From Escherichia phage ECO4, in the sequence record NC_054911.1: 64,000 nucleotides of DNA; one strand, given 5' to 3'. The notes beneath the pieces were generated by a model. It saw only the letters and a program-made list of their open reading frames with translations, did no database searches and was not told where the DNA came from. How positions within the stretch are numbered: position 1 is the stretch's first letter; each line of letters starts with the position of its first letter. The translations under genes and the position numbers were made by a program. Positions 5,038 to 63,813 of the stretch are shown piece after piece.

Positions 5038-5673
5038 TCACAGTTCAGATGCTACAATGATTACTGCTTCAATGTTTTCTTCCGAGCGTTTAATGTCAAG
5101 ATACACATTACCGTTTTTAGCGATTTTACATGACATTCCGATATCAGTAAATTTCTGAATATGATGTTCCATCATTTTGTATCCAAAAATTCGCATATTT
5201 CCATTGTTGTTAATTTCAAAATTACGAATTCCGTGAGTGCGTTTTTCTAAAATAGCGAGATAGTTACTACGATAAGTTTCGACCTTTTTAAGAACAAATC
5301 CATTTTCATCTAAAAGTTTTAACATGAGGTCTTTATCTTCTTCCATATCAGAAGTAATCTCACGAGCTTTACGAGTTGCTCGTTTTTTCAGTAGTTCCGG
5401 AGCATTTTCCTGTGCGTATAAAGTTGCTGCATTTGAAATAATATCCTGAGCTTCACCAGTAATGATTAATCCATCACCTGATTTCTCCACCAGGCCTTTT
5501 TTAATCAACACCCCAATATTACTATTAACTACTGCGTTACCTAAATCTGGATGCACCTCACGAACTTCTACAGCTGTAATGAAATCTTTCTTAGCAATAG
5601 TAATTAAAATCGCAGCAGTTTTTTCATTCAGAACATCGTTAGAAGCTTTGATGATGTAAGTTACTTTAGACAT
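5038..5673 (-). CDS. motA: Middle transcription activator MotA
   Basis: 211 aa, MSKVTYIIKASNDVLNEKTAAILITIAKKDF... matches T4 MotA. Confidence 0.95.
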   Translation of the reverse strand: MSKVTYIIKASNDVLNEKTAAILITIAKKDFITAVEVREVHPDLGNAVVNSNIGVLIKKGLVEKSGDGLIITGEAQDIISNAATLYAQENAPELLKKRATRKAREITSDMEEDKDLMLKLLDENGFVLKKVETYRSNYLAILEKRTHGIRNFEINNNGNMRIFGYKMMEHHIQKFTDIGMSCKIAKNGNVYLDIKRSEENIEAVIIVASEL

Positions 5674-5712
5674 TTTCTAATCTCCGTAATTCTGTATCAG
5701 TAGTTGATAGTT

Positions 5713-5744
5713 GTATAGTACCACAGTATGCTTTGGTTGTAAAC
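5713..5744 (-). promoter_or_regulatory. T4-type early promoter upstream of motA
   Basis: Minus strand GTTTACA, 18 nt, TACTAT with TGG prefix (TGGTACTATAC); A/T-rich UP-like tract upstream. Confidence 0.55.
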
Positions 5745-5770
5745 CGTTTTGTGAAAAAATTTTTGAAATA

Positions 5771-5797
5771 AAAAAGGGAGAGCCTCGGCTCTCCCTA
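5771..5797 (-). terminator. Rho-independent terminator (GGGAGAGCC-GAGG-CTCTCCC then T-run on minus strand)
   Basis: Perfect stem followed by TTTTTT on the minus strand, downstream of gene 52 and the small ORF. Confidence 0.6.
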
Positions 5798-8732: not shown

Positions 8733-8832
8733 AGTAAGCGTTTAATACATCAATCATTAAAACGATTAGGAATATACTCAAAACTACTAGTATTATAACT
8801 ACATTCCATATAGCTTTAACAATCTTTTTCAT
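8719..8832 (-). CDS. Small membrane protein (37 aa)
   Basis: SD GGAGGAACAG before ATG 8832; the listed 82-aa ORF would run through the promoter. Confidence 0.4.
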   Translation of the reverse strand: MKKIVKAIWNVVIILVVLSIFLIVLMIDVLNAYFGFM

Positions 8833-8857
8833 TTTCTGTTCCTCCGTAGTTGATAGG

Positions 8858-8890
8858 GTAATAGTACCACAGAGGAACAGTCTTGTAAAC
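8858..8890 (-). promoter_or_regulatory. T4-type early promoter
   Basis: GTTTACA, about 18 nt, TACTAT; near-identical to the 62294-62325 element. Confidence 0.5.
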
Positions 8891-9075
8891 AACTTTTTTA
8901 AAAATATTCGTAATAAATGTGAATACCAACTACTACCGCTGAAACCTGTGCAACCCACCACGCACAAGCAATAAGTACAGAATTCAAAATTTTCATAATA
9001 ACCTCATCACAAAAGTAAATGTTAAACAAATTACTGGAATACTAATTAACCAAACAAAACACCACCATAATGAAC

Positions 9076-9339
9076 TCATAGTTCAATCTCAGCGATTTCC
9101 AAGTGTTTTTGTTTTATTGCCTTTTTAACACAATCATGGACTAAATATGACCATGAATCATTATATTCTCCATTAACTAATCGTTGGAGATCTTCGCGTG
9201 ATGATAAGTAAGGTTGATCTGATTCCCATTTTGATAAAAATACTGCAGTAAAAATATCTCCTTCACCTGTAGTTGAAGTCGTAAATGCAATAAATTCACC
9301 GGTAATTTTATGTTTAGCGTAATAAAATTTAAATTTCAT
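9076..9339 (-). CDS. Hypothetical protein (87 aa)
   Basis: SD GGAGGAGTAAAA before ATG 9339. Confidence 0.55.
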   Translation of the reverse strand: MKFKFYYAKHKITGEFIAFTTSTTGEGDIFTAVFLSKWESDQPYLSSREDLQRLVNGEYNDSWSYLVHDCVKKAIKQKHLEIAEIEL

Positions 9340-9364
9340 TTTTACTCCTCCGTAGCTGATAGTT

Positions 9365-9396
9365 GTATAGTACCACGGTCCTTGTGGCATGTAAAC
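9365..9396 (-). promoter_or_regulatory. T4-type early promoter
   Basis: GTTTAC ... TGGTACTATAC on minus strand. Confidence 0.5.
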
Positions 9397-9412
9397 CATT
9401 TTGTGAAATTTT

Positions 9413-9970
9413 TTAAATGGAAAGATACCATCCGTTGTAGTTGCTTTTTCTTACAACCTTACGAAGGTCTTCTCTGTCACCGATGAACTTCGGAGTGTAC
9501 TGGATGACACCTGGATGAATTTCTTTAGTGTTGAATATAATTATACAGTCAGCGACTTGATGATTTAGAATGGGCCCTAGATTTATTCCAGAACCGTATG
9601 GATACTCTCCGCGGCATCCTGTTGTTACAGAAATCCAACGTGAGTCAGTTTGGTGTGTCTTAACTTCTACACGAAGCCCACAGTATTTTGGATGTGCTAA
9701 AACATCCCATGCATATGTGTACGGATCATCGACATCTTCTTGGCCTTTATTGACATATCCGCTTAGCCAATCTGCTACAAAAAACTCTGCGTACACAGCG
9801 ATACGGCATCTTTCGATAACTTCTGCCTTATCCTGATTTGGATTTTGTTTTAAAGAGTATCTTGCTGTATCAGCAATTTTGACCTTCATTTCACTAGTCA
9901 AGTCACTGTTCGATAGGGTAAATGTCGGAATCTGAAATAGTCTCTGTAAACCCGGATTCGTTTTCTGCAT
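9413..9970 (-). CDS. denB: Endonuclease IV DenB
   Basis: 185 aa, matches T4 DenB in length and sequence. Confidence 0.9.
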   Translation of the reverse strand: MQKTNPGLQRLFQIPTFTLSNSDLTSEMKVKIADTARYSLKQNPNQDKAEVIERCRIAVYAEFFVADWLSGYVNKGQEDVDDPYTYAWDVLAHPKYCGLRVEVKTHQTDSRWISVTTGCRGEYPYGSGINLGPILNHQVADCIIIFNTKEIHPGVIQYTPKFIGDREDLRKVVRKSNYNGWYLSI

Positions 9971-10036
9971 TAAACTTTCCTTTTACGTCGGAATCACTGA
10001 TGTTAATATAATAAATCATAGTTTCCCTTAAAACAA

Positions 10037-10052
10037 AAGGGCCGAAGCCCTT
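10037..10052 (-). terminator. Hairpin AAGGGCCGAAGCCCTT flanked by A-run and T-run (bidirectional terminator-like)
   Basis: GNRA-tetraloop stem between the 64-aa ORF and denB. Confidence 0.5.
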
Positions 10053-10056
10053 TACT

Positions 10057-10251
10057 TTATTTGAATTGTGCAATTCTTTTCTCTAAACAATCTGCGTAAG
10101 ATTTCATTGAGATGAACTGTGAAAGCAGCAGTTCTTGCTCAACTGCACTAACCGTTAGAAACTTTGTGCTTTCTAAAAATTTGCTCAGTGCATTAATTTT
10201 GAGCATTAATTGATCGTATTCTTCTTTTACTCGTGCTTGATAACCTAACAT
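10057..10251 (-). CDS. Hypothetical protein (64 aa)
   Basis: ORF between rIIB and denB. Confidence 0.55.
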   Translation of the reverse strand: MLGYQARVKEEYDQLMLKINALSKFLESTKFLTVSAVEQELLLSQFISMKSYADCLEKRIAQFK

Positions 10252-13621: not shown

Positions 13622-13646
13622 TCCAATATCCTCATTTGCCCAATTA

Positions 13647-13676
13647 ATTATACCACATCCTTGTGGTAAAGTAAAC
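13647..13676 (-). promoter_or_regulatory. T4-type early promoter (GTTTAC, 18 nt, TATAAT with TGG prefix)
   Basis: Minus strand GTTTACTTTACCACAAGGATGTGGTATAAT. Confidence 0.6.
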
Positions 13677-15496
13677 TACTGGCTCATCCATTCTTTACGA
13701 AGGTCAGCATTATCTCCCATGAGCATTTCAAAAAGCTCTTTCCAGTTCTCAGGAAGTTTAACAACATCATATACTGGGTTTTGAATCATCTCACGATATT
13801 CAGATTTTTCCAAAGAGCCAAGTCCCTTAATATAACGGATGCTATGTTTAGGTAGAGCATCTTTGGCACTCTCATATTCAGCGACTGTATAAAACCATTC
13901 TTGTTTTTTACCGACCTGAGCGATGATTACAGGAGTTTTGACAAAGCGAATTCTTCCTTGTTCAAACAGTTCTGGCCAATTACTAAAAAATCCGAGCAGA
14001 GAAGGATAAATGCTTCCTAAACCATCATGGTCAGCATCGGTCATAATAGCAATATTATGATAATTCAAGTTTTCAGCTTTTTCACCAAGAACTAATCCAG
14101 TGATTGCGCAAATATCAAATAGTTCTTTGTTTTTAAGCATATCAGCATATGACATACCCCAACTGTTGAGAACTTTACCACGCAATGGATAACCACCATG
14201 AAGTTCTTTATCACGAACATCAATAAGATATCCGATAGCAGAATCACCCTCAGTCAAGAAAAGAGTAGTGTCAGCATCTTTACCGCAAAGATTCGCTTTG
14301 ATATGTTTATGAACTTTAGCTTTAGAAGCCTTTTTAGCTGCTTTAGTTTCTGCTGCTTTTTCTGCTGCTAATTTACGTGCTAAAGCAGCTTCAATAATCG
14401 GCATTAAAGTTGCTTCATTATTTAGAATAGCGCGTGAAATCTTTTTAGCATCAAGCTGAATATGACTACGAATTTCGCCAAATGGAGAAGTCAAACGCTC
14501 TTTAGTTTGAGAATCAAATCGCATGTTTTTCATATCACGGACAAACATAACGATAGTCAAACATTCTTTGACACGTGCTTTAGTGACATCAATTTTGAAC
14601 TTACGTTTGATTTGTGGAATAAGGTCTTCACAAATATCATCCATAACGCAGTCAATGTGATGGCCACCATTCTTAGTATGAATGTTATTGACGTATGTTA
14701 ATTGACGAAAACCATCCGGTGAACGACCAACCGCAATAGAACAATTTTCTTGTTCTTGAACAATAGCATGCTCATCATATTGGCGTGCATATTTCTTAAA
14801 ATTGCCCTGAACCTTTTTACCATTAAAGGTAAATTGAATATCAGGATAAACGACAGCAAGTGTCTGGAGACGATCCAGTGTAATGTCAAGATAAACCTGA
14901 GACAGCTCATTAGTTTCAAATGACATAAAATCAGGAATGAAAGTAACACGAGTTCCTTTCCATTTTCCAGGAATAGTTTCCCAGGATTTATTTTCCATAC
15001 CATTTGAACAACGAACTACAATATTATTTTGACCATCGCCAGTTTCACCGACAAACATCACAGAAAAAATGTTTGTCAAACTAGAACCAACACCATTCAT
15101 ACCACCGGTGACGCGTTCTTTATCATCACCGAAGTTACCACCTGCTTTTGGAATAGTCCAGGCAGCAACAGGACCAGGAATTTCTTCACCGGTAGGTGTT
15201 TTAACCATCGCTTGTGGAATACCGCGACCGTTATCTTCAACTGTTACCTGATTATTTTTAATGGTAACATTAATTTTATTCGCGAATTTAAACTTAGTAC
15301 GAATACCTTCATCTACTGAGTTATCGATAATTTCATCAATAAGCTTAACAAGACCAGGTACATACTGAACACTTTCCCATTTACCAAACAGAAAGCGCTC
15401 ATGCATTTCATTAGCAGAAGAGCCAATATACATGCCGCTACGCTTTTTGATATGTTCAATATCGCTCAGAATTTTAATTTCATTCTTAATCATCAC
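13676..15496 (-). CDS. 39: DNA topoisomerase II large subunit gp39, uninterrupted
   Basis: 606 aa GyrB-like ATPase plus toprim; one continuous ORF, no separate gene 60 or homing endonuclease. Confidence 0.95.
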   Translation of the reverse strand: MMIKNEIKILSDIEHIKKRSGMYIGSSANEMHERFLFGKWESVQYVPGLVKLIDEIIDNSVDEGIRTKFKFANKINVTIKNNQVTVEDNGRGIPQAMVKTPTGEEIPGPVAAWTIPKAGGNFGDDKERVTGGMNGVGSSLTNIFSVMFVGETGDGQNNIVVRCSNGMENKSWETIPGKWKGTRVTFIPDFMSFETNELSQVYLDITLDRLQTLAVVYPDIQFTFNGKKVQGNFKKYARQYDEHAIVQEQENCSIAVGRSPDGFRQLTYVNNIHTKNGGHHIDCVMDDICEDLIPQIKRKFKIDVTKARVKECLTIVMFVRDMKNMRFDSQTKERLTSPFGEIRSHIQLDAKKISRAILNNEATLMPIIEAALARKLAAEKAAETKAAKKASKAKVHKHIKANLCGKDADTTLFLTEGDSAIGYLIDVRDKELHGGYPLRGKVLNSWGMSYADMLKNKELFDICAITGLVLGEKAENLNYHNIAIMTDADHDGLGSIYPSLLGFFSNWPELFEQGRIRFVKTPVIIAQVGKKQEWFYTVAEYESAKDALPKHSIRYIKGLGSLEKSEYREMIQNPVYDVVKLPENWKELFEMLMGDNADLRKEWMSQ

Positions 15497-15547
15497 TTAT
15501 CCTCGTTTGGTTTCGGGAATATTATACTCCGGCAATCATAAAGCTAA

Positions 15548-15565
15548 AGGCCCGAAGGCCTTTTA
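15548..15565 (-). terminator. Hairpin AGGCC-CGAA-GGCCT flanked by A/T runs
   Basis: Stem-loop overlapping the stop of the 89-aa ORF. Confidence 0.4.
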
Positions 15566-15832
15566 TTTAAAACGAATAGTTGAATCCTTAAAGAACAGCC
15601 CAGAACATACTGTTCCTTCTACTTTCTGCCCAGTAGGTCCAATAGCACGAAATCCAGTATGTTGGAAATCATTTTCAGAGCAACCGAACCAGTTATATCC
15701 AGTGATTTCAATATTCGTAAAACCACTCGATGATAAAATTTTAGTTGCATTATCAGCATCAGTACATCCTACTAAAGATACTGCTAATACTAATGCTGCA
15801 ATAGAACGATTAATATATTTCATAGTTTTCAC
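15563..15832 (-). CDS. Putative lipoprotein (89 aa)
   Basis: Signal peptide with lipobox LVGC. Confidence 0.6.
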   Translation of the reverse strand: MKTMKYINRSIAALVLAVSLVGCTDADNATKILSSSGFTNIEITGYNWFGCSENDFQHTGFRAIGPTGQKVEGTVCSGLFFKDSTIRFK

Positions 15833-17297: not shown

Positions 17298-17321
17298 TTT
17301 ATTCTCCAAGTTGTTTTCTGT

Positions 17322-17364
17322 ATCAGTAGTTGATATTGATATAGTACCATAATCAACTACTGAT
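17322..17364 (-). repeat. Perfect 13-bp inverted repeat (ATCAGTAGTTGAT / ATCAACTACTGAT) flanking a -10-like TGGTACTAT core
   Basis: Seen directly; 17-nt spacer; no GTTTAC -35 in this copy. Confidence 0.7.
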
Positions 17365-17374
17365 GTATATAGTT

Positions 17375-17872
17375 TTATGAAAAAATTTTAAACTTTATGC
17401 ATAGAGAGTGTTTAATCCAACTTTCAGGAATGACTTTGTATGTTCCTAAAAATACCACGTTGTACAACTTAACGCCATCTTCTACCCATTGATCGGTAAT
17501 GTATCCACACATAGCGCGAGTATAAACAGCCTTTCCATCATCTTTGATAAATTTAAATTCGCAAGGAGCAATGAACTTAATAGCTTGACCGAGTTTCCAC
17601 TTAAAGTCTACACCTACATGCGAAGTATCAATCGTTTCAATTCCTTTAGCGGGAACAGCTTTCAAAAACGCAGATTCAAGAAATTTCGCACGAACATAGC
17701 CAAACTGAGGTTTAGACTTTCCATCTTTAGGAATGATACGCACTTTTACTTCAGAATCTTCATCTTTAACACCATGCTTAAGCTGAATGCTTACAATTTC
17801 GACCAATTTTCCTGCTGCTTTAGAACGGGATTTATTAGATACACGAGCAATTTCACCAATATTAATAATCAT
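17375..17872 (-). CDS. Hypothetical protein (165 aa), motB-region paralog A
   Basis: Shares C-terminal motif TDQWVEDGVKLYNVVF with the next ORF. Confidence 0.65.
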   Translation of the reverse strand: MIINIGEIARVSNKSRSKAAGKLVEIVSIQLKHGVKDEDSEVKVRIIPKDGKSKPQFGYVRAKFLESAFLKAVPAKGIETIDTSHVGVDFKWKLGQAIKFIAPCEFKFIKDDGKAVYTRAMCGYITDQWVEDGVKLYNVVFLGTYKVIPESWIKHSLCIKFKIFS

Positions 17873-26633: not shown

Positions 26634-26715
26634 GTAATTCTCCTTTTATTTAAATTACATGATTATTTATAATAATTCTCGCGGCTTTTAAGTCGTCGTT
26701 TAAATAAACGAGCTA

Positions 26716-27234
26716 TTAATAACCTCGGTCTTGACGAGCGAAGTTTTCAGCATTCTTCAGATAATAAAGTTTAAAGATTTCTTCAGCAGTAAGGCCGAGA
26801 CCTTGGAACATGTTCAGAACGAAATGAAGAATATCAATCATTTCGAATTTAATTTCCAACTGGTCTTGTGGAGACAAATCAGTAATCAGAGTTTCACGAC
26901 GTTCACCATGCTGCGACTTCCAAGGCTTCCATACAGCAGATGCATCTTTTTCGCCATTGCTCATACCACCAAGAGATGTCAGAAGTTCACGGAATTCATC
27001 GTCAATATAATCTTTCTGATTACGCAGCCAATCGACAACTTCACCTGCAGTAGCCAAATCATCAGGATGACGGTTATATTCAGGTTTATCTTTAGCTAAA
27101 CGAACCTGCAAAGATTTCTGCATATCAAGCATAACTTGCAGTGGGTCTTTTTCGTCACCGAGAATATCCCAATATTCATTTTGAGCTTTATCAGCGCCTT
27201 CGATCAGTTGCGAACATTCATTAAAGTAAGCCAT
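26716..27234 (-). CDS. 56: dCTP pyrophosphatase gp56
   Basis: 172 aa from ATG 27234 (MAYFNECSQLIEG...), SD AAAGGAAAAATA; the listed 203-aa form is an upstream extension. Confidence 0.9.
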   Translation of the reverse strand: MAYFNECSQLIEGADKAQNEYWDILGDEKDPLQVMLDMQKSLQVRLAKDKPEYNRHPDDLATAGEVVDWLRNQKDYIDDEFRELLTSLGGMSNGEKDASAVWKPWKSQHGERRETLITDLSPQDQLEIKFEMIDILHFVLNMFQGLGLTAEEIFKLYYLKNAENFARQDRGY

Positions 27235-27305
27235 TATTTTTCCTTTCAATTCATGGGTTAGTAGATTAATTATACAATAAATATATAAAGCAATAAGGAG
27301 GACAT

Positions 27306-31978: not shown

Positions 31979-33134
31979 TTAACTGTTCGAGGTCAGTTTC
32001 TAAATCAGCAGCTGATTTACTTTTACTTTCTGGAGATTTAAATTTTTCAACCTTTGAGTTAATCAATTCATCAACTTCAGCTTCAACAATTTCATTACTA
32101 TCAATAGCACCTAACTGATAAGCACGTTTAATAGCATCACGGAATGGTTGATGCTTAAATAAAGGACCCCAGAATGTAGTGCAGTTGGTATCTTTTGCGC
32201 GCCAAGATTTTTCTTCGCGAATCATCTCACCAGTTTCTTCATCAAGAAATTCACGAGCATACCAACCATTTTTAGGTTTTACCACGAATCCTAATTCTAG
32301 AGCCATATCTAACAATCCAGAATAAGGATCGATACCGCCGTCAAATTTAACATCAATAAAGAATTTACTTTTTTCTTTAACGGTACGAGATTTTTCTACA
32401 TTTAGAACAAATTGATACCCTTGAAGATCAGAACCATCTTTAATCTGACGTTTACCGATAATAAATACGGTATCAGCCGAATACATTACGCCTGTACCAC
32501 CTGTCATCACGGTTTTACTAAACATTTCAATTGTTTCAATTGTATGGTTAACCGCAACACATGGAATATTTTTAATGCTAAAGTAAGGAGTAACAATACG
32601 GAATAATGACTTCAGTGATTTAGCACGAGTCATATCTGCCACAGATTTTTCATTCAAGGCATCTTCAGTTTCTTTCTTAGAAGCCATATTACCGATTGAG
32701 TCGATGAATACAATAACTTTTTCACCGCGCTCAATAGCTTCAAGCTGATTCACCATATCAATTTTTAGCTGTTCAACTGACTGAATCGGCGTATGAATTA
32801 CTCGTTCTGGGTCAACCCCCATGGATCGCAAATAAGCTGGAGTAATACCAAATTCGCTATCATAGAATAGACAAACCGCGTCAGGATATTTGTTCAAATA
32901 TGCCGCAACCATAGTCAAAGACATATTTGATTTAAAGTGTTTAGAAGGCCCTGCGAAAATAGTTAAACCAGACTGCATACCGCCATCAATCGCACCAGAA
33001 ATAGCAATATTAAGCATTGGAATTTTTGTACGGATTACATCCTTTTCATTAAAGAATTTAGATGTAGTCAGTTCAGCAGTCATTTTAGAAGTGGAAGCTT
33101 TAATCAAACGGGATTTTAAATCTGCAATAGACAT
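31953..33134 (-). CDS. uvsX: Recombinase UvsX (RecA-like)
   Basis: 393 aa, matches T4 UvsX; acidic C-terminal tail. Confidence 0.95.
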   Translation of the reverse strand: MSIADLKSRLIKASTSKMTAELTTSKFFNEKDVIRTKIPMLNIAISGAIDGGMQSGLTIFAGPSKHFKSNMSLTMVAAYLNKYPDAVCLFYDSEFGITPAYLRSMGVDPERVIHTPIQSVEQLKIDMVNQLEAIERGEKVIVFIDSIGNMASKKETEDALNEKSVADMTRAKSLKSLFRIVTPYFSIKNIPCVAVNHTIETIEMFSKTVMTGGTGVMYSADTVFIIGKRQIKDGSDLQGYQFVLNVEKSRTVKEKSKFFIDVKFDGGIDPYSGLLDMALELGFVVKPKNGWYAREFLDEETGEMIREEKSWRAKDTNCTTFWGPLFKHQPFRDAIKRAYQLGAIDSNEIVEAEVDELINSKVEKFKSPESKSKSAADLETDLEQLSDMEEFNE

Positions 33135-33211
33135 TCATTTTTTCCATAGGCATCATTATATTTTCCTCACTGGTTAAAGATAGGGTAATTATAACACAAT
33201 AAATTTAGGCA

Positions 33212-34060
33212 TTAATCAACTGCTATTGGATGAATAGCATTAAACTTATGAAATGCTTCTGATTTTTCTTTACGCGAAACACACATGCGAAGAACCTTTA
33301 ATGGTTCATCTTCTTCACCCAACGATTTTCGTTTTTCAATATTAGAAGTTTTCCAACGAGCTTGCTCTGGAAACTCTCTATTGATTTGCTCAAGCGCTCT
33401 ATTATGTTTAGAATTACTACGAATTGAACTGCACCCGCCAGGAGCTTGTGCTTTTCCGGATACAACCAGATATTTGAACAAGGCCAAATGTGGATAACCT
33501 TGATTAATTAAATTGAGAAATGCATACATATCTTCGCATAAATCAATTTTTCCATACCCAATTTGTTCTGTCGTAAGTTTTCCGAGGTCATACCATGTAT
33601 TCGTGAATCCATATGAATTTTCACGATAATTACCCCAAGATGAAGTAATTTTAAAAATAGGTAGACGAGCATGGCCATGATAATACCCACAATCCATGGC
33701 ATCCTCAACATATTGAATCAATTCATAGAACTGTTCACGAGTTAATTGATTGACTTTATCTACGCAGCGTCGATCATCTCTTTTTCGCATTGAACTCATA
33801 CGAATAGTAGTATCATCGTCAATCATCCAGATTCGTTGACCTGCATACATATCAGTAATTGCTTTACGAGTACCGGCAATTCCGTTTACATCATCAGGAA
33901 TAGTTATAATTTTAGCTTTAGACCCATAGGCATCATAATAAGCTTTTTCTTCATGTTCACGCACTACAATATGGGGTTCATAATCAGTCGGAAACATATC
34001 AAGGGCAGAAACTGCCCCGACACGCTGATAACTTGGAATTACGAATTGAATCATTTCCAC
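33212..34060 (-). CDS. Putative glucosyltransferase (282 aa, not T4 beta-gt type); candidate beta-1,6-glucosyl-alpha-glucose transferase
   Basis: Occupies the beta-gt locus between uvsX and 42; DDD motif (WMIDDDTT) typical of GT-A enzymes; T4 beta-gt is 351 aa. Confidence 0.55.
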   Translation of the reverse strand: MEMIQFVIPSYQRVGAVSALDMFPTDYEPHIVVREHEEKAYYDAYGSKAKIITIPDDVNGIAGTRKAITDMYAGQRIWMIDDDTTIRMSSMRKRDDRRCVDKVNQLTREQFYELIQYVEDAMDCGYYHGHARLPIFKITSSWGNYRENSYGFTNTWYDLGKLTTEQIGYGKIDLCEDMYAFLNLINQGYPHLALFKYLVVSGKAQAPGGCSSIRSNSKHNRALEQINREFPEQARWKTSNIEKRKSLGEEDEPLKVLRMCVSRKEKSEAFHKFNAIHPIAVD

Positions 34061-34791
34061 TCACCTTTATAGTCTTTTTTCACAATATGAGTTTCGCCAG
34101 TATTCCACCAATGATCAACCAAGTAAAAATGACGAGAATATACATGAAGACTTCCAACATTCCATATAATAGAACCTGCTTTATACTGACGAGTTGAATC
34201 GCCTGCATTCAAATCAGATACTAATTTATCTAATACGTATTTTTGCCATGCATAATCATTACGGAATCCGAAGACCACGTCATTTGAGCGCATGCTTACT
34301 ACTGCATTGACTTTCTTATCACGAATCAGGTACTGTACTGTATTAGTACACATGAAATCTGACATACCATCTTTATTGTAGTCAAATTGCATAGATGGAC
34401 GAGTATAAATCATGATACCACGTCGAGAATCAGGATTTTGACCAAGTTCAGCTAAACACATATCATACTGAGCATAGTTATCTTCTGACCAGATAGCCCA
34501 ACCATAATTCGAGTTAATTTCACCTTTAGAAGATGCTACTTGTTGCCAAATCTTCGGTGTTTCACCTGGAATATCTTTAACAAACAAGCTTTTAGATTTA
34601 TACCATTCAAGTTCACGCTGAATGTATTCATCATTAAGAGCGCCAAAAATAAACGGTTCATCTGCTACAAATGATGCGCCAATAATTTCAATAGTTTTAA
34701 CACCAGTTTTATCAACTACGAAATCTTTTTCTTTTAATGCAAGCCCCAAATGAAGACGGATTTCTTCAACTGTCATAGAGTCACTAATCAT
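34051..34791 (-). CDS. 42: dCMP hydroxymethylase gp42
   Basis: 246 aa, thymidylate-synthase fold, matches T4 gp42. Confidence 0.95.
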   Translation of the reverse strand: MISDSMTVEEIRLHLGLALKEKDFVVDKTGVKTIEIIGASFVADEPFIFGALNDEYIQRELEWYKSKSLFVKDIPGETPKIWQQVASSKGEINSNYGWAIWSEDNYAQYDMCLAELGQNPDSRRGIMIYTRPSMQFDYNKDGMSDFMCTNTVQYLIRDKKVNAVVSMRSNDVVFGFRNDYAWQKYVLDKLVSDLNAGDSTRQYKAGSIIWNVGSLHVYSRHFYLVDHWWNTGETHIVKKDYKGEWK

Positions 34792-35203: not shown

Positions 35204-35584
35204 TCACTTAGTCAAATTTTTTACACATGAATTATAAGAATTCACTACATACTCCATCGGAGCATTTTTACCAGTACGCCATTGGTAATTATTAGCCCAA
35301 TTTGCCCAAAGCATGGCGCAGTAGTTTTCAATTTTTTCTTCGCGTGTAATTACATCTGAATTACGATATGCTTGAGCAGATTCATCTGGACGAATAGCTT
35401 CGTCAAAATTCGCCTGCATTTGTTCTACTGTTTGCTTTGGAGCTTCTTTATAACACTTGATATTAGGATTATAAAATTTGCTTGAACAGTTTACAATTTT
35501 TCCTGCATCAGACTGATTTACTACCGGTCCTTGAGCTACACAACCAGTAAGACCTAATGCAATAACCAAAATAGCGATTTTCAT
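35204..35584 (-). CDS. Putative lipoprotein (126 aa)
   Basis: Signal peptide with lipobox LTGC. Confidence 0.6.
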   Translation of the reverse strand: MKIAILVIALGLTGCVAQGPVVNQSDAGKIVNCSSKFYNPNIKCYKEAPKQTVEQMQANFDEAIRPDESAQAYRNSDVITREEKIENYCAMLWANWANNYQWRTGKNAPMEYVVNSYNSCVKNLTK

Positions 35585-35594
35585 AATAATTTCC

Positions 35595-35831
35595 TCAAAT
35601 GCAAGTAGTAATTACTCCAGTAGTGCTTATGCAGGTATTACCCATTTGCACACCTAAAGATCCATTTGTATTCACATGAAGATTATCGTCAATTTTAACT
35701 GATATTTTACCATTAGTGTGAATAACGGTGCTAGATTCAATCACAGGTTGAGTATCATTTTCAACACTAACAAATGGAACTGCTGCTAATGCAACTAAAC
35801 AAACTGCTAAGCATCCCATAACAATTTTCAT
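35595..35831 (-). CDS. Secreted small protein (78 aa)
   Basis: ATG 35831 with SD GGAG; signal peptide. Confidence 0.55.
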   Translation of the reverse strand: MKIVMGCLAVCLVALAAVPFVSVENDTQPVIESSTVIHTNGKISVKIDDNLHVNTNGSLGVQMGNTCISTTGVITTCI

Positions 35832-35865
35832 TTCATTCTCCAAATCCGTATCAGTAGTTGATAGT

Positions 35866-35898
35866 TGTATAGTACCATAGAAGAACAGGGATGTAAAC
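35866..35898 (-). promoter_or_regulatory. T4-type early promoter (one of three near-identical cassettes)
   Basis: GTTTACA ... TGGTACTATAC. Confidence 0.55.
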
Positions 35899-35977
35899 AG
35901 TTTTGTGAAAAAATTTTTAGGGAATCCAAAGGGTCCAGAATCATCTCTTTTTCATAAGTATAGATTTATATTACTTG

Positions 35978-36000
35978 TATGAAAAAGGGACCCGGAGGTC
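35978..36000 (-). terminator. Rho-independent terminator after gene 43 (GGGACC-TCCG-GGTCCC then T5)
   Basis: Stem-loop plus U-run on minus strand. Confidence 0.6.
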
Positions 36001-36015
36001 CCTAGATTTATTCTA

Positions 36016-38712: not shown

Positions 38713-38771
38713 AGATATTCCTTAGTTTATAGCCCGAGTTATTAGGCTCTTGATATATTATACTCCAAATA

Positions 38772-38790
38772 AGGGGCCGAAGCCCCTTGC
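38772..38790 (-). terminator. Hairpin GGGGC-CGAAG-CCCC after regA
   Basis: GNRA-like loop hairpin immediately after regA stop. Confidence 0.45.
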
Positions 38791-39159
38791 TTAATTACCA
38801 ATCGTATATTTAGGAACGAGTTTCCATTCATGTTTTTGTTTAAAAGAAATAACTCGGAAGTTATTAGTTAAATCTTTCATAAAAGTTCTTTGACCAGGGA
38901 CGATTTCAATCAGTCCCCAATCTTCTAACAGCCATGCAATCGAATCACGACGAACTTCATCTTCTTCTGTCATTTCAACTTGACGGCCATCCATACGAAG
39001 CATTTCTTTAAAATGAACGATATAGTATAGTCCTTTTTTCTGAAGAATATGACAGGACTGATACAGAACTTTATCTTTATTATTAGCAATTCCCATACGA
39101 GTCAAAGTTTCTTTTACTTTCAGAAAATCTTCAGGTTTTTTAAGAGTAATTTCAATCAT
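38791..39159 (-). CDS. regA: Translational repressor RegA
   Basis: 122 aa, matches T4 RegA. Confidence 0.9.
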   Translation of the reverse strand: MIEITLKKPEDFLKVKETLTRMGIANNKDKVLYQSCHILQKKGLYYIVHFKEMLRMDGRQVEMTEEDEVRRDSIAWLLEDWGLIEIVPGQRTFMKDLTNNFRVISFKQKHEWKLVPKYTIGN

Positions 39160-40685: not shown

Positions 40686-40721
40686 AATTTCCTCATTCAA
40701 GTTTTAGTGTAAATTATAAAG

Positions 40722-40735
40722 GGCCGAAGCCCTCT
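40722..40735 (-). terminator. Hairpin AGGGCCGAAGCCCT between genes 45 and 44
   Basis: Exact GGGCCGAAGCCC core. Confidence 0.45.
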
Positions 40736-40736
40736 A

Positions 40737-41423
40737 TTAAAAATCGTGGGTAGAATCAGCTTCAAGAGCTACTACATAATTCGCGTGTTCACCTTCAAAT
40801 TTAGCAGCACCTTGTTTACCTTTTGCCCAGAGCAGAAGTTTATAATTTCCTGGTTGCATTTTCATATTTGCCATATTGATAATAAAATTAAATGTATTTT
40901 CACCATCATAATCACCAAGAGTCAAAGAATATTTAACACGGGTCAGAGCAGAATCTTCTACTTTATTAAAACCGTTAATTACGATTTTACCTTCTTTTAC
41001 CGTGATAGCAATTGTATCAATTTGCAGACCACGAGATACACGCAACAGTTGTTGAAGGTCTTCAGCTTTAATTTCAGTAACAACAGATGCTACCGGGAAT
41101 GGAATTGGTTTATTAGGAGCAACTACTGTACTCGGATCGGCTGCTGGCCAAAAAATTGTTGAACGAGCATCAGCAATTTTAATATTACCATCTTCTGACT
41201 GGGAAATTTCTGCATCATCATTAACTAGAGACAGAATACCGAGAAAACCGTTCAAATCGTAAATTGCTACATCAAAATCAATAACGTCAGAAATATTCGC
41301 TTCTGCATAAGTTGTACCATTAACCGCACGAGTCATAATAAATTGACCGGATTTAAGCATAATACCAGAGTTAATAGTAGCGAAATTTTTCAGCAGAGCA
41401 GTAGTATCTTTAGACAGTTTCAT
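40737..41423 (-). CDS. 45: Sliding clamp gp45
   Basis: 228 aa, matches T4 gp45. Confidence 0.95.
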   Translation of the reverse strand: MKLSKDTTALLKNFATINSGIMLKSGQFIMTRAVNGTTYAEANISDVIDFDVAIYDLNGFLGILSLVNDDAEISQSEDGNIKIADARSTIFWPAADPSTVVAPNKPIPFPVASVVTEIKAEDLQQLLRVSRGLQIDTIAITVKEGKIVINGFNKVEDSALTRVKYSLTLGDYDGENTFNFIINMANMKMQPGNYKLLLWAKGKQGAAKFEGEHANYVVALEADSTHDF

Positions 41424-45868: not shown

Positions 45869-46030
45869 ATATCAAGAACCGTCATTGAAATGCAAAATAA
45901 AATTATTGAAATAAACCCATCTGGTGTGCTAAAGAAACCAATCCAGCATGCTCTAGTGAATAGATAAAATGCAAGAAAAAGTATCACATATCCAAGAAAT
46001 ATCATTATATCAAACTCCGTATAAAGCTAA

Positions 46031-46050
46031 AGGGCCGAAGCCCTTTATTT
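46031..46050 (-). other. Hairpin AAAGGGCCGAAGCCCTTT overlapping the alpha-gt stop codon
   Basis: Exact GGGCCGAAGCCC core. Confidence 0.4.
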
Positions 46051-47247
46051 TGTAATAATGTCAAACTGTTCTTTAAAGCAGAAGCTTGAATCTTGATGCT
46101 GATACAAAAATTCATATGCTTTTTCTCGCTCACGGTCATAAAGAGCTCGGTCAGATGACAGTTCTTTAATACGTTCAAACGTTGATTCCATATCATTTTC
46201 ATCAAACCAAATGATACCGCTATCATGCGAGGTCAAAGGAGTATTATCAACACGGAATTTTAAATTTTCGCCAGTAGATTTCCAAAATACCGGAATTGTT
46301 CCACATGCACCAAGCTCGAGATGAGTATATTCTAAAGAACGTTGTAGATATTTTTTATCCAACTTACTCAGCTGATAACCAAATCCGGATTTACTCATGC
46401 GTTCAAGCATTTCGCTATTTACATAACGGTCAAGAATTTGCGTTGGCAAATTAGGAGCAATTTTAATTTGGTCTACTTGATGAAGACGATAATACTCGTA
46501 TGGAATTCCTTTTTCTTTAATAGGAATGAACGCTGGAGAACGTTCCAGACCTTCCATAATAGTACTTAGTCCTGCAGGTTTAAGATGTTTTTCATGAAAA
46601 TCAAACATCTGATAAAAACCTTTCCATGTAGTCGTACGACCAATCCAACGGTTGATATTCATGTTAATTTCAGAAACATCTTTCCAGTAGGTTGATCTAA
46701 CCTTCGCAATATCCATAGGAGGCTGAAAGTTATATACTGTCGGTGCTTCTTCAATATCATCAAACAGAGAAACTGTTTCAGGATACCATTCTTTCATCAG
46801 AACTTTATTAAAATCACCATTATCAGAATGGCTAAAAATAACATCAGCTCGACGAACAGTTTCTTCTAATCCCAAATTTCGACGCAAAGAAAGAGAAGAA
46901 TGGTCATGTTGATAAACTACAACACGAACAGAAGGTTTAATGTTATCAATAATTTTTTTATAGTTATTAATAGTGTCTTCTTCAACCGAAGTAGCAGGAA
47001 CTGAATTAATAATTAGAATATCACAATCATTTACCAGCTTAAGTGTTTTATCATATTCTTTTGCCAATAAAACCGGAATTGAAAATGATTTATAATCATG
47101 CGCGCAATTACGAGTAAATGATTTATCTTTAGCATAAACCAAAGTTACTTCATGACCATTTTTAATAAACCAATCACGCTGCTCAAGAGAAAATTTAGTT
47201 ACACCGCAACCTTCAAGACCCCGAGCCAGAAAAATGCATACTTTCAT
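46045..47247 (-). CDS. a-gt: Alpha-glucosyltransferase
   Basis: 400 aa, matches T4 alpha-gt. Confidence 0.9.
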   Translation of the reverse strand: MKVCIFLARGLEGCGVTKFSLEQRDWFIKNGHEVTLVYAKDKSFTRNCAHDYKSFSIPVLLAKEYDKTLKLVNDCDILIINSVPATSVEEDTINNYKKIIDNIKPSVRVVVYQHDHSSLSLRRNLGLEETVRRADVIFSHSDNGDFNKVLMKEWYPETVSLFDDIEEAPTVYNFQPPMDIAKVRSTYWKDVSEINMNINRWIGRTTTWKGFYQMFDFHEKHLKPAGLSTIMEGLERSPAFIPIKEKGIPYEYYRLHQVDQIKIAPNLPTQILDRYVNSEMLERMSKSGFGYQLSKLDKKYLQRSLEYTHLELGACGTIPVFWKSTGENLKFRVDNTPLTSHDSGIIWFDENDMESTFERIKELSSDRALYDREREKAYEFLYQHQDSSFCFKEQFDIITK

Positions 47248-47490
47248 TTAATATCCTCATTGTTTTGGTTTATTTTACCAAAAATTTATAAAGCAATATA
47301 GGAGCCGAAGCTCCTATCCACATAATACGCCATACAAAGGCTCATTAGAGCTTCTAAATTTTCTGCGCCTATATGTTATAGTTCCTTCTGCTTTAGCTTT
47401 ATCGTAAGACTCTTTAAAGCGTCTCATCATTTCTACTTTAGAGGAACGAATTTTATTATAATCTATTTCAGAAGTCTGGGTGTTCATCTT

Positions 47491-49660: not shown

Positions 49661-49682
49661 TATCCAAAAAGGGCCGAAGCCC
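49661..49682 (-). terminator. Rho-independent terminator (AAGGGCCGAAGCCCTT with A/T run)
   Basis: Hairpin followed by U-run on minus strand. Confidence 0.55.
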
Positions 49683-49883
49683 TTAGCTAAACTTTTTGGC
49701 ACCCTTCCAGCCTTCGTACATCATTGCGACTGACAATGACAAAGCTCCTTCACATGCTGCATACTTATTATTCCAGAACCAATTTAGAAAAACTTCATCC
49801 TCAATACCATTGTGTTTCATGTTCTGGAAAAAATTGGCGCGTTCTTCACGAAGCTTTTGCGATAATTTAGATTCAGGATTCAT
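49683..49883 (-). CDS. Hypothetical protein (66 aa)
   Basis: ORF. Confidence 0.5.
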   Translation of the reverse strand: MNPESKLSQKLREERANFFQNMKHNGIEDEVFLNWFWNNKYAACEGALSLSVAMMYEGWKGAKKFS

Positions 49884-51590: not shown

Positions 51591-52061
51591 TTAATCATGT
51601 TTCCACACCCCATCGGTATTTGACCAAAGTCGCTGATTATCTGATCCTCGCCACAGCTTTTTGGTCGGAAGATTTTTCTCATACTTCCCATCAATAATAA
51701 CATCAACATATTTAAGCATTTCTAGTTGTTTAATATCTTCAAACTTATATCCTGTCCACAACCAAATGCTTTTATTGGGATAAAGATTTTTAACTGTTTG
51801 AACGATGCAATGAATCACGTCTCTGTTATCAGGATAAAGAGGGTCACCTCCGGTTATAGTTAATCCTTCTATATAATCATTATTCAAACATTCAATTAAT
51901 TGTTCTAGTGTTTCACCAGTGAATGGAATACCATTTCTAGCATTCCATGTTGATTTATTATAACACCCTTCGCATTTATGCAAACAACCTGTAACGAAAA
52001 GAACGACCCTGCATCCAGGGCCATTAACAAAGCAGCACGGGTATATTCTGTCATAATTCAT
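51591..52061 (-). CDS. nrdG: Anaerobic ribonucleotide reductase activating protein NrdG (radical SAM)
   Basis: 156 aa from ATG 52061; CLHKCEGC iron-sulfur motif; ATG overlaps stop of upstream endonuclease ORF. Confidence 0.9.
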   Translation of the reverse strand: MNYDRIYPCCFVNGPGCRVVLFVTGCLHKCEGCYNKSTWNARNGIPFTGETLEQLIECLNNDYIEGLTITGGDPLYPDNRDVIHCIVQTVKNLYPNKSIWLWTGYKFEDIKQLEMLKYVDVIIDGKYEKNLPTKKLWRGSDNQRLWSNTDGVWKHD

Positions 52062-55175: not shown

Positions 55176-55198
55176 CCCTTACCTTAAATAGATAAGGG
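55176..55198 (-). promoter_or_regulatory. Hairpin (CCCTTA / TAAGGG) immediately upstream of the gene 49 start, embedding the SD
   Basis: Seen directly; T4 gene 49 translation is known to be modulated by an upstream hairpin. Confidence 0.4.
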
Positions 55199-55208
55199 TA
55201 TTTATTAT

Positions 55209-55256
55209 TTTCAAGTATTGTAAAACATTCGATGCAATCGCTTATATTGTCGAATC
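55209..55256 (-). repeat. Direct repeat copy A (48 bp)
   Basis: 45/48 identical to 55422..55469; covers the 3' end of the 58-aa ORF. Confidence 0.85.
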
Positions 55257-55387
55257 ATCTTTTTAGTAGGACGAGAATAGGTTCCTACGCAAGTGGTCAT
55301 ATGAGGGTCCGTAGAATGTCCTTTAATAAAAAGTTTCCAAACCTTACCGCCATTTAACTTTTCAGTATAAACCAATTCGGTTTTCAT
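55211..55387 (-). CDS. Small ORF (58 aa) whose last 13 aa duplicate the C-terminus of the downstream 161-aa protein
   Basis: Ends ...QYKRLHRMFYNT versus ...QYKRLNQMFYNT in the neighbour. Confidence 0.4.
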   Translation of the reverse strand: MKTELVYTEKLNGGKVWKLFIKGHSTDPHMTTCVGTYSRPTKKMIRQYKRLHRMFYNT

Positions 55388-55421
55388 TAAAATGTCCTGT
55401 CAGAAAAAGAATTTTGAGTTT

Positions 55422-59296: not shown

Positions 59297-59324
59297 AATA
59301 ATCTCCTCAGTAGAAAGTAAGAAC

Positions 59325-59354
59325 ATTATACCACATCCTTGTGGCAAAGTAAAC
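59325..59354 (-). promoter_or_regulatory. T4-type early promoter (GTTTAC, 18 nt, TATAAT with TGG prefix)
   Basis: Near-identical to the 13647..13676 element. Confidence 0.6.
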
Positions 59355-60376
59355 TAGTTCAGTGCATTTAGTGCATTGTTCAGTTTAGAACGTTGCTTCG
59401 TAAGATTTTTGACTTTTTCTTGAGCTTTTTCTAGCATCTTTTCAGCTTCTAGCACTTCATTGGTCACTTTAACGAGTTCATCATCTACTGCCTTAAGAGA
59501 CTTCTCAATCGCATCGGCGTGCCATTTTTCTACAGGTTTAAAATTTGAATTTTCAGTAGGAAGAAAACTCACTTTATTAAGTTTACATGCATCTATATTG
59601 CTTGAGCTATACATCCAAAATTTAGGATCGTTTGATGAGTAATTGGATAAATTTAAGATATCTTGCACTTCCTGCTTTTTCTCTTGCGGGACTTCGTCCT
59701 TTCTCAAAAAATCGTATTTAAATGAAACGATCATATCAAGTTCATATGTTGTTGTGTCTAATTTAAATCGCTCAAAACGAGGTAAAATCTTAGACTGAAC
59801 AGCGGCAACAACATCCATATACTTAAATGCTTCTGTCAACTGCGATTTAAGGCATTCGCAAATTGAAAGAGAATTTTTTGTATTAGGTTTAAAGCTAATT
59901 CGCGCAGTTCTGTTATTTTCTTTTAATGGTCTTACTTCCATCTGAAGAGTATAACCATCAAATTTCAGGTTCTTTAAGTTAATGTCAGAACCTTTTAATC
60001 GACTAGCAGTCGACAAAATTTGCTTTAATTGTCTACGGAACAGAGCAATAAATCTCCATTCAATACGATAATGATTTGGATTGAAAAATCCAGATGATAA
60101 ATCGACCTTACTTTGACCAACGCCTTGAACAAATAGAGGATTTTTATAATCAATAGTTTTACAGAAATCTGTGAGCTGCTCACGAGCAGTCATTTGTGTA
60201 ATATACCCCGCTTTACTAAAATTACTCACCCATTCACTGCTATTTAGATATTTAAAGTGATGAATAGCATGATTAACTTTATCAGGGTCTAAATTATTTT
60301 CACACAAAAATGTCATAACATTACGAGTATCGCTGGCAGTACGAACCATATCTTCAATTTGAGAACGAGTTTTCAT
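59354..60376 (-). CDS. Paralog family member 3 (340 aa) with C-terminal coiled coil
   Basis: N-terminus MKTRSQIEDMV...; motif WRFIALFRRQLKQILSTASRL; SD AAGGA. Confidence 0.65.
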   Translation of the reverse strand: MKTRSQIEDMVRTASDTRNVMTFLCENNLDPDKVNHAIHHFKYLNSSEWVSNFSKAGYITQMTAREQLTDFCKTIDYKNPLFVQGVGQSKVDLSSGFFNPNHYRIEWRFIALFRRQLKQILSTASRLKGSDINLKNLKFDGYTLQMEVRPLKENNRTARISFKPNTKNSLSICECLKSQLTEAFKYMDVVAAVQSKILPRFERFKLDTTTYELDMIVSFKYDFLRKDEVPQEKKQEVQDILNLSNYSSNDPKFWMYSSSNIDACKLNKVSFLPTENSNFKPVEKWHADAIEKSLKAVDDELVKVTNEVLEAEKMLEKAQEKVKNLTKQRSKLNNALNALN

Positions 60377-62267: not shown

Positions 62268-62293
62268 TTTCTGTTCCTCCGTAGTTGATAGTT

Positions 62294-62325
62294 GTATAGT
62301 ACCACAGAGGAACAGTCTTGTAAAC
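62294..62325 (-). promoter_or_regulatory. T4-type early promoter
   Basis: GTTTACA ... TGGTACTATAC; near-identical to 8858..8890. Confidence 0.55.
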
Positions 62326-62327
62326 CA

Positions 62328-62642
62328 CTAAAAGAAACTTCTTTCACAATTTTTTCCACTGAACCAGGCGCTCACTGCTTTCTTGGTCTCAGGAGCAGTG
62401 TTATCCATAAACCATTCAAAGGCAGCCTTTTTATGATTCTGGAGGGCTTCTCGGGCTTTAATCTGCTCACGGTCTATTAACACTAACATATGAGCCTTTC
62501 TTGTCACCATGGGCTTCTTATGATTTTTTGAATACTCCCAGTCATTTGTCCATCGCATTGTTGTTGCGAACTGAAATACTGCTTCTTTAATTTTAGTTTC
62601 GTAAATTTCACGAGCCTTTGAGTATAACATCACTACCTCCAT
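62328..62642 (-). CDS. Hypothetical protein (104 aa)
   Basis: ORF. Confidence 0.55.
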   Translation of the reverse strand: MEVVMLYSKAREIYETKIKEAVFQFATTMRWTNDWEYSKNHKKPMVTRKAHMLVLIDREQIKAREALQNHKKAAFEWFMDNTAPETKKAVSAWFSGKNCERSFF

Positions 62643-62731: not shown

Positions 62732-63700
62732 TTATTTCAAAAGAGTAACCTCAGCAATTTCTTCCCAACCGTTTTTGTCGGTCATAATAAAGTCAGCAAG
62801 ATAAAGAGCAGTACGCAGTGAAACATTGCGTAAACGATTAACATTAACTTTCATCCATGATAATGCTTTATAAGTTTCTTCATCAGAAAGACCGCGCTTT
62901 TGCATCATGTCAGTTGAAAGAATAACATCTTCAACCCTGACCATAATTTCTTCATTAGTGTGAACACCCAAATCTAAATAAACCGAGCGGGACACTAATG
63001 CTTGTAAATGTGGAGCAAGTTTAGTACCACGGTCTAATTCGCGGTCAATGTCAACGTTTGTGATAAAAACAATCGTTCCTTTAAATTCAAACTCACGCTC
63101 AATGCCTTTTTCTTCTAAGTAAGAAGACGCAGTGCTCCAGCAGACTTTACGGGTCTCTCCAGTGTCCAGAGCGGCTTTTAGAAGATTAAGAATGTCCATA
63201 TCAGAGAAAACATCTACATCATCAATCAAAAGGACAGAATTCTCTTCACGATTATTCCAAAGCTGCTCATAAAGACCAATACCAGAGATTTTACCATTAA
63301 TGCTTTTATATTCAATGTATCCAATATCATTTGCTTTATTTAAAGCTTTATCTAAAGAATACGTTTTACCAATACCTGCTGCGCCAGAGATAATTAATGA
63401 ACGAATATTTCCGTTAATAATACCATTCGTCATCATTCCCATAACATTAAATCTTTTATTAATGCGGGTTTTCATATCTTCATATGATTCTTTAACTTCT
63501 TCAACTTTTACACCATCATATGAAATATCTGATTTGTAAACCCAAACACCGCGACGTTTACCGTCAATTTCAACAAAAACTTTACCATCTCCTTGTGCAT
63601 CTACCGGAGCATTATCTGGGAACCATTCGCCTAAGAGCTCAAAAGTTCCAGAGATTTCTTTACCGAAGTAGATACCCTTATTGATAGTTACAGTTTTCAT
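62732..63700 (-). CDS. P-loop NTPase (322 aa)
   Basis: Walker A GAAGIGKT and Walker B-like LLIDDVD; ATG 63700 with SD GGAG. Confidence 0.65.
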   Translation of the reverse strand: MKTVTINKGIYFGKEISGTFELLGEWFPDNAPVDAQGDGKVFVEIDGKRRGVWVYKSDISYDGVKVEEVKESYEDMKTRINKRFNVMGMMTNGIINGNIRSLIISGAAGIGKTYSLDKALNKANDIGYIEYKSINGKISGIGLYEQLWNNREENSVLLIDDVDVFSDMDILNLLKAALDTGETRKVCWSTASSYLEEKGIEREFEFKGTIVFITNVDIDRELDRGTKLAPHLQALVSRSVYLDLGVHTNEEIMVRVEDVILSTDMMQKRGLSDEETYKALSWMKVNVNRLRNVSLRTALYLADFIMTDKNGWEEIAEVTLLK

Positions 63701-63732
63701 TTTATTCTCCAAATCCGTATCAGTTGATAGTT

Positions 63733-63764
63733 GTATAGTACCATAAAGCTTTATGCTTGTAAAC
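63733..63764 (-). promoter_or_regulatory. T4-type early promoter (third copy of the cassette)
   Basis: GTTTACA ... TGGTACTATAC with UP-like A/T tract. Confidence 0.55.
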
Positions 63765-63794
63765 CGTTTTGTGAAAAAATTTTGAAATAAAAAA

Positions 63795-63813
63795 GGGAGC
63801 CCGAAGGCTCCCT
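63795..63813 (-). terminator. Rho-independent terminator (GGGAGCC-TTCG-GGCTCCC then T6)
   Basis: Stem-loop plus U-run on minus strand. Confidence 0.6.

Follow-up and report, generated by a model that had tools for sequence, protein, structure and literature searches.

Repeated early promoter-terminator cassettes in a T4-like phage genome and the small-gene modules at their sites

Three segments of the Escherichia phage ECO4 genome, at 5691..5797, 35846..36003 and 63711..63813 of the 64,000-nt stretch analysed here (NC_054911.1; called the window below), have a long block of sequence in common. What are these segments, why are they alike, and do they serve recombination? A sequence-only reading had taken them for near-identical early promoter-terminator cassettes of about 100 bp, and had regarded such long dispersed direct repeats as substrates for homologous recombination leading to deletions or duplications.

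The window is part of a Tequatrovirus (T4-like) genome with about 95-97% identity to T4. Several hundred Tequatrovirus genomes match segments of it at 95-99% identity, and phage Ec_MI-02 (OP856590.1) shows 100% identity to positions 61700-64000. Positions 2264-64000 are collinear with T4 (AF158101) from 160,197 through the record end/start to 55,620. The prereplicative (early) genes of the region lie on the minus strand as in T4, so the cassettes have to be read as reverse complements. The repeats had been described as dispersed on one strand, and all of them do lie on a single strand, but that strand is the minus strand when the elements are read 5' to 3'. The strict pattern GTTTAC..TGGTAnnnT had 13 matches in the 64 kb, all on the minus strand and each directly 5' of an ORF, and a profile built from these 13 found about five further, weaker sites, also on the minus strand. 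The strict and weaker copies sit in the ndd, motB-cef, imm and nrdC.x regions.

Anatomy of the three cassettes

The long common block was present in all three segments, far above chance. On the minus strand each segment has the same order: a GC-rich hairpin, a T-run with an A/T block, and GTTTACA, followed by a variable stretch of 14 nt, TGGTACTATACAACTATCAACT(ACT)GATAC(A/G)G, a GGAG Shine-Dalgarno (SD) sequence and ATG. The start region and leader common to the three is ATCAACTACTGATAC. Allowing one mismatch, the 25-nt block AAATTTTTTCACAAAACGGTTTACA is found at three places (5738-5762, 35892-35916 and 63758-63782), whereas zero copies were expected from 100 shuffles. With up to three mismatches allowed, there are six copies of the 24-nt block TGGTACTATACAACTATCAACTAC, all on the minus strand, with zero expected from shuffles.

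A 32-mer that had been quoted for the shared block is exact in copy 2 only; it has one mismatch in copy 1 (GATACAGA) and is 3 nt shorter in copy 3. Likewise, the description "near-identical" is correct for the blocks but not for the whole of about 100 bp: compared in pairs over 95 nt, the three main copies are 77-80% identical, against 48-72% identity between them and the window's other early promoters. Each cassette consists of near-perfect blocks of 25 nt and 24-32 nt, which flank unrelated 14-nt spacers between -35 and -10, and it is because of these spacers that near-identity does not extend over the full 100 bp. The distance from hairpin to -35 also differs, with 31 nt in copies 1 and 3 and 89 nt in copy 2; these 58 additional nucleotides account for the longer interval first reported for copy 2.

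Cassette 1 precedes motA. Its terminator hairpin, AGGGAGAGCC-GAGG-CTCTCCCT (5775..5796, minus strand; -18.5 kcal/mol on folding, z = -4.2), follows the stop codon of a motA.1-like ORF adjoining gene 52, as placed with the T4 gene map. The T-tract (5765-5774) continues into the UP element, and the UP-like A/T block with the -35 element covers 5738..5762, with TTTACA at 5743-5738. TGn, the -10 element and the leader start, ATCAACTAC, are at 5700..5723 (TACTAT 5720-5715). The discriminator ACAACT leads to a predicted +1 at 5708, placed by analogy with T4 27,044. The SD with a RegB-type site, GGAGATTAGAA, and the motA start codon (5673-5671) occupy 5671..5685.

Cassette 2, on the same strand, has the hairpin GGGACC-TCCG-GGTCCC at 35987..36002 (-13.9 kcal/mol, z = -2.9), after gene 43, with its T-tract at about 35980-35986. 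Its UP block, -35, spacer, TGn/-10 and leader cover 35854..35916, with the -35 element at 35897-35892, TGn/-10 at 35877-35869 (TACTAT 35874-35869) and the predicted +1 at 35862. The RegB-type SD GGAGAATGAAA and the start codon (35831-35829) are at 35829..35841. The ORF behind it (35595-35831, minus strand) encodes 78 aa with a signal-peptide-like N-terminus (MKIVMGCLAVCLVALAA...) and has no T4 counterpart; imm.1 follows it at 35204-35584 (minus strand).

Cassette 3, again on the minus strand, begins after nrdC.11 with the hairpin GGGAGCC-TTCG-GGCTCCC (63795..63812; -17.3 kcal/mol, z = -3.9), from which a T-tract (about 63785-63794) leads into the UP element. The UP block, -35, palindromic spacer CATAAAGCTTTATG, TGn/-10 and leader are found at 63720..63782: -35 at 63763-63758, TGn/-10 at 63743-63735 (TACTAT 63740-63735) and predicted +1 at 63728. 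The leader carries a 3-nt deletion. The SD, GGAGAATAAAA, is an exact match with the T4 RegB/S1 consensus and lies with the nrdC.10 start codon at 63698..63710.

The terminator hairpins claimed from the raw sequence were thus found in all three segments. They have GC-rich stems of 7-9 bp, tetraloops GAGG, UCCG and UUCG, and T5-T6 directly afterwards, and the stop codons of the preceding genes lie 4-9 nt 5' of them. By these sequence features they are predicted intrinsic (Rho-independent) terminators.

All three copies have TTTACA, a spacing of 17 nt and TG-G-TACTAT, which is the -35/extended -10 arrangement of the T4 early promoter (Pe). Immediately 5' of the -35 element is AAAAATTTTTTCACAAAAC, which agreed with the UP consensus when compared by eye, and the stretch AAAAATTTTTT-CAC-AAAA resembles the full UP-element consensus in our own comparison. 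In copies 1 and 3 the terminator T-tract continues into the UP element, so one A/T tract may be used for both termination and alpha-CTD binding. The predicted +1 in each copy is the A of ATCAAC, 7 nt past the -10 element. The leaders measure 28-35 nt and have essentially no structure (0 to -0.8 kcal/mol). Their 3' ends are GGAGAATAAAA, which is the exact RegB/S1 consensus, and GGAGAATGAAA and GGAGATTAGAA, each with one deviation, and the three SD regions are therefore predicted RegB/S1 target sites.

T4 orthologs and published cassettes

T4 early promoter elements have been described since the late 1980s, and lists of these promoters are reportedly given in Miller et al. 2003 and Liebig & Rueger 1989. 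T4 has cassettes at the same three sites, with -35 anchors at 163673 (motA), 27080 (imm.1) and 55384 (nrdC.10). They differ from the window cassettes at 0-1 positions except in the imm.1 spacer, with 0-5% substitutions, and cassette 3 is identical to T4 around 55384. The three copies are orthologs of T4 Pe and have the orientation of the early genes. T4 early promoters consist of UP, -35, TGn and -10 elements plus additional regions of consensus (Hinton 2010, PMC2988021); the window cassettes have the same architecture at the same positions, and we found no difference from T4 Pe beyond these substitutions and the imm.1 spacer.

The T4 transcription unit downstream of Pe26.4 has its boundary/start at 27,044 (PMC6024815). 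Counted from the sequence, this is exactly the predicted +1 A, 7 nt past the -10 element, of the copy 2 ortholog. In the record of phage fPS-2 (Tequatrovirus) the motA copy is annotated as 'predicted early promoter', with a 'terminator' just upstream. A literature search found no genome-wide map of T4 transcription starts. The proposed promoter identity is supported by the presence of every sequence feature of T4 early promoters, by the T4 orthologs, and by the coincidence of 27,044 and the predicted start.

The RegB/S1 consensus is a single-stranded 11-mer, GGAGRAYARAA / GGAGAAUAAAA (Durand et al. 2006, PMC1702504; PMC3014915), and motA RNA was reported as a good RegB substrate (PMC1702504). 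The candidate sites of the window, GGAGAATAAAA (nrdC.10 and cef), GGAGAATGAAA and GGAGATTAGAA (motA), are exact or near matches to this consensus in leaders predicted to be unstructured. Such a site is only the 3'-most part of the window repeat.

The whole composite is known as PeSL (promoter-early stem-loop). It comprises stem-loop, AT-rich tract, early promoter, SD and start codon, and was first described in phages RB49/phi1, where reporters gave evidence of promoter and terminator activity and PCR gave evidence of excised mini-circles (Arbiol 2010, PMC2839356). For the pair T4/PST, PeSLs with the consensus TTTACW-N17-TAYWAT and an exchange at ndd.4/.5 were reported (Comeau, Arbiol & Krisch 2014, PMC4122927); this is the locus of the window copies at 8836-9423. 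The window cassettes are intergenic and have all five parts in the same composite. They recur in many copies before small non-essential ORFs in hyperplastic regions, and several indel states with cassette-flanked modules exist at the three sites. The stem-loop of each main copy has the form of a canonical terminator and precedes the UP element, whereas in RB49/phi1 it lies most often between or over -35 and -10, an arrangement whose counterpart in the window is at ndd.4, nrdC.8 and cef. Nothing essential differs otherwise; ECO4 is another Tequatrovirus with the same elements. We take the repeats to be T4 early promoter-terminator cassettes (PeSLs), which were already published, including for this phage group. 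The sequence-only reading recognised the regulatory cassettes correctly from raw sequence, and the biology itself had already been described. What we add is a small population view: alternative small-gene modules are present at each site in hundreds of sequenced Tequatroviruses.

Gene modules at the sites and descent of the copies

All three sites are indel-polymorphic among Tequatroviruses, with modules present, absent or replaced; module junctions were read at two of them, motA and nrdC.11|nrdC.10. Of 43 full-length relatives sampled for the motA site, about 12 have two cassettes there that enclose a module of 341 bp with a 228-bp ORF. The junction in the alignment is within TACTATACAACTATCAA, and both flanking cassettes have the 23-nt module-specific leader CTATCAAATAAATGAACTGAAAC. 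At the nrdC.11/nrdC.10 site the relatives show states of 0, +263, +484, +621 and +1099 bp, each module being bracketed by cassette copies. The +621 state contains a 486-bp gene, annotated as ADP-ribosylase in T2, and the +1099 state is two modules in tandem. The cassette copies around the T2 module have the terminator-proximal UP/-35 block in common, and those around the ASO78A module the -10/CTATCAA block. In a spread sample of 46 relatives compared at the imm.1 site, about 29 have the 78-aa ORF, about 13 lack it (T4, T6) and about 4 have a replacement for it (T2), with the junction within the SD/ATGAAAAT block. Because the junctions lie in differing parts of the homology, general homologous recombination fits better than a site-specific mechanism. 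The 'repeat_region' annotations at the motA locus of phages teqhal and teqdroes were considered too, but they are inside gene 52 and not at the cassette.

The earlier proposal that the repeats are recombination substrates is supported by the indel states at three sites and the cassette-bounded modules at two, but it does not hold between the copies that were named. The intervals between them are 30.2 and 27.9 kb, and we rejected viable deletion or duplication there on gene content: the first includes genes 41, 42, 56 and 61 and the second genes 43, 44, 45 and 62. These replication genes are essential in T4. Deletions between the named copies would be lethal, and duplications would go beyond the spare headful capacity. 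With essential genes within intervals of 28-30 kb, only local or inter-genome exchange is realistic. Realistic events are short-range deletion between neighbours (62325/63764, 1439 bp; 8890/9396, 506 bp), ectopic conversion between cassettes, and module exchange between co-infecting genomes.

Taking anatomy and population data together, we consider it very probable that the repeats are sigma-70-dependent T4-like early promoters, combined with the terminator of the upstream gene and a leader, which are homologous and act as portable homology. We infer promoter and terminator activity in ECO4, RegB cleavage and the recombination mechanism as follows. The GC-rich hairpin with its U-tract would stop transcription from upstream, and the T-run would extend into a near-consensus UP element for the alpha-CTDs. 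GTTTACA (-35), the 17-nt spacer, TGn and TACTAT (-10) would then recruit host RNA polymerase right upon infection, and transcription would begin at the A of ATCAAC. The leader of 28-35 nt would end in an SD of GGAGAAUAAAA type, which may double as a RegB/S1 site for later shut-off of early mRNA. Since blocks of 25-60 nt recur before many small non-essential genes, they may act as portable homology, and gene modules would be inserted, lost or replaced at cassette sites according to the published PeSL model. The cassette-bracketed modules at the two junction-read sites are consistent with plug-in sites for accessory genes. Such sites are natural, self-contained and promoter-equipped insertion sites of use in phage engineering, and the cassettes also help in the annotation of early transcription units of T4-like genomes.

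Could the copies be alike by convergence, that is, early promoters selected to one optimum, with neither common descent nor a special role in recombination? The best-conserved blocks coincide with the known contact sites of RNA polymerase, ribosome and RegB, and the three main copies have unrelated spacers. Selection for function acts directly on UP, -35, TGn/-10 and SD, so convergence could indeed account for some of the likeness. Breakpoint enrichment against T4 was also not significant: in the single comparison of the window with T4, 3 of 19 structural gaps were within 80 nt of a cassette (1.6 expected, P ~0.2), 4 of 19 were within 120 nt (P ~0.2), and one of 19 had an edge inside the predefined cassette span (1.1 expected).

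Yet the discriminator and initial transcribed block ACAACTATCAACTACTGATAC, for which no contact requirement is known, is identical or nearly so in 5-6 cassettes, and the non-orthologous pairs ndd.4/nrdC.8 and rIIA.1/nrdC.4 have whole 15-nt spacers in common. Modules of relatives are flanked by copies with module-specific leaders, as at the motA site. Upstream halves, spacers and leaders also occur in mosaic combinations across loci and genomes, including IMG/VR; for example, an imm.1-type upstream half is joined to a cef-type leader before a different gene in other phages, and in T4 the leader of imm.1, with the first codons, is also found in the ndd.6 cassette. These features point to homologous copies and not merely convergent ones, and we regard pure convergence as unlikely. 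A related candidate, concerted evolution of the three copies, was rejected: the paralogs differ by 20-23% and the orthologs by 0-5%, which gives no sign of rapid ongoing homogenisation, and there is only patchy mosaicism, such as the imm.1 spacer in T4 and ECO4.

Homologous cassettes might also move actively, by dedicated site-specific movement via excised mini-circles instead of passive UvsX-type homology. The homology in several module junctions does stop at the heptamer CTATCAA; however, this heptamer is simply the promoter +1 region too, no recombinase is associated with the cassettes, and the junctions are scattered over UP/-35 (T2), -10/CTATCAA (ASO78A) and SD/ATGAAAAT (imm.1), as general homologous recombination predicts, so we give active mobility very little credence. 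Least probable of all is that the shared transcribed block is a functional RNA element (5' stabiliser hairpin, riboregulator or small RNA): conservation does extend past -10 and a UAUCA/UGAUA stem is predicted in longer RNA, but from the predicted +1 only 4 A-U-rich pairs of -0.6 kcal/mol can form, whole leaders reach only 0 to -0.8 kcal/mol, and natural 3-nt deletion variants (CTGATAC, CTAATAC) abolish the stem, which led us to reject a 5'-terminal stabiliser hairpin in the shared leader, and Rfam gave zero matches at gathering thresholds over the whole window.

Related cassettes, promoter-spanning hairpins and other repeats

Two further pairs had been called nearly identical, and both are. 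The copies at 8836 and 62271 have 93% identity over 67 nt (8828-8894 and 62263-62329), and those at 13640 and 59320 have 97% over 32 nt (13647-13678 and 59325-59356). Two further members, 9340-9416 and 17314-17390, belong to the same sub-family. All are on the minus strand. The first pair comprises the cassette before ndd.4 (8836..8914), which has no upstream terminator, and the one before nrdC.8 (62271..62349), which has the same spacer. The second pair comprises an early promoter of TGGTATAAT type before rIIA.1 (13638..13703) and the early promoter before nrdC.4 (59317..59377). A cassette after denB (9354..9423) precedes an 88-aa ORF (9076-9339, MKFKFYYAKH...) without T4 counterpart, behind which come the orthologs of ndd.6 and ndd.5, and another related cassette lies before cef (17322..17393).

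The first pair can fold into 15-bp hairpins over the promoter. At ndd.4, spacer/TGn 8880-8866 pairs with leader/SD 8850-8836 (-23.4 kcal/mol, z = -4.6), and at nrdC.8, 62315-62301 pairs with 62285-62271 (-29.6 kcal/mol, z = -5.0). The hairpins have no U-tract and are thus not intrinsic terminators. The predicted start is in the loop, so the SD might be masked only in read-through RNA. In our own reading, the T4 ndd.4 copy has three differences at stem positions and keeps the pairing at all three. At cef (17322-17364, minus strand) the spacer ATCAGTAGTTGAT repeats the shared leader ATCAACTACTGAT perfectly over 13 nt in inverted orientation, which gives a 13-bp stem around -10 (-23.6 kcal/mol, z = -6.1); T4 is arranged likewise.

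Hairpins of this kind are known from T4 e, soc, 49 and I-TevI, where they mask the ribosome binding site and contain late promoters, and where unmasking depends on the promoter (PMC3014915). The ndd.4 and nrdC.8 hairpins likewise pair the SD with pre-start sequence, but they hold an early promoter, and the likeness applies to this secondary pair and not to the three main cassettes. One part of the repeat, the +1 block (C)TATCAACTACTGATAC, is left unaccounted for by the contacts of polymerase and ribosome. It has inverted copies in the cef, ndd.4 and nrdC.8 spacers, and there is a slim chance that it is a functional module itself. In one version it could be an insulator, by which each small early gene is translated from its own promoter only, with the SD folded in read-through RNA; in another, CTATCAA could be a preferred crossover point for cassette exchange. 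If the module reading is true, it would extend the unmasking known for late promoters to early promoters, and PeSL stem-loops would gain a translational rather than a terminator function. We treat the promoter-spanning hairpins at ndd.4, nrdC.8 and cef as leads, not results.

In IMGVR_UViG_2974787500_000001 the cassettes of the motA site and the nrdC.11 site both lack about 50 nt (T-tract, UP element and -35), and the terminator hairpin is fused straight to the spacer and -10. These losses may be true deletions that inactivate the promoter, or they may stem from the assembly.

Gaps in the alignment of the window with T4 were found at 14011-14076, 26671-27295, 33122-34069, 47238-47263, 52061-52945 and 54160-54163, and many differences from T4 appear to be homing-endonuclease or replaced genes. 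T4 homing-endonuclease segments missing or replaced in the window are the mobA region, segF-56-dam, segA/b-gt, mobB, mobC and the nrdD I-TevII intron, as judged solely from alignment coordinates and T4 annotation.

Between pin and gene 49 (within 55194-55469) a 58-aa ORF without T4 counterpart (55211-55387, minus strand) is flanked by 63-nt direct repeats of 86% identity, and the end of its product (KMIRQYKRLHRMFYNT) repeats the C-terminus of Pin. The ORF has the appearance of a module that entered by gene-end homology and not by a promoter cassette. In another repeat family, a hairpin with the plus-strand sequence GGGCC-GAAG-GCCC recurs in six near-identical copies, at 10029-10058, 15539-15568, 38764-38793, 40711-40740, 46022-46051 and 49661-49690; on the minus strand these have the form of UUCG-tetraloop terminators, AAAGGGCUUCGGCCCUUU.
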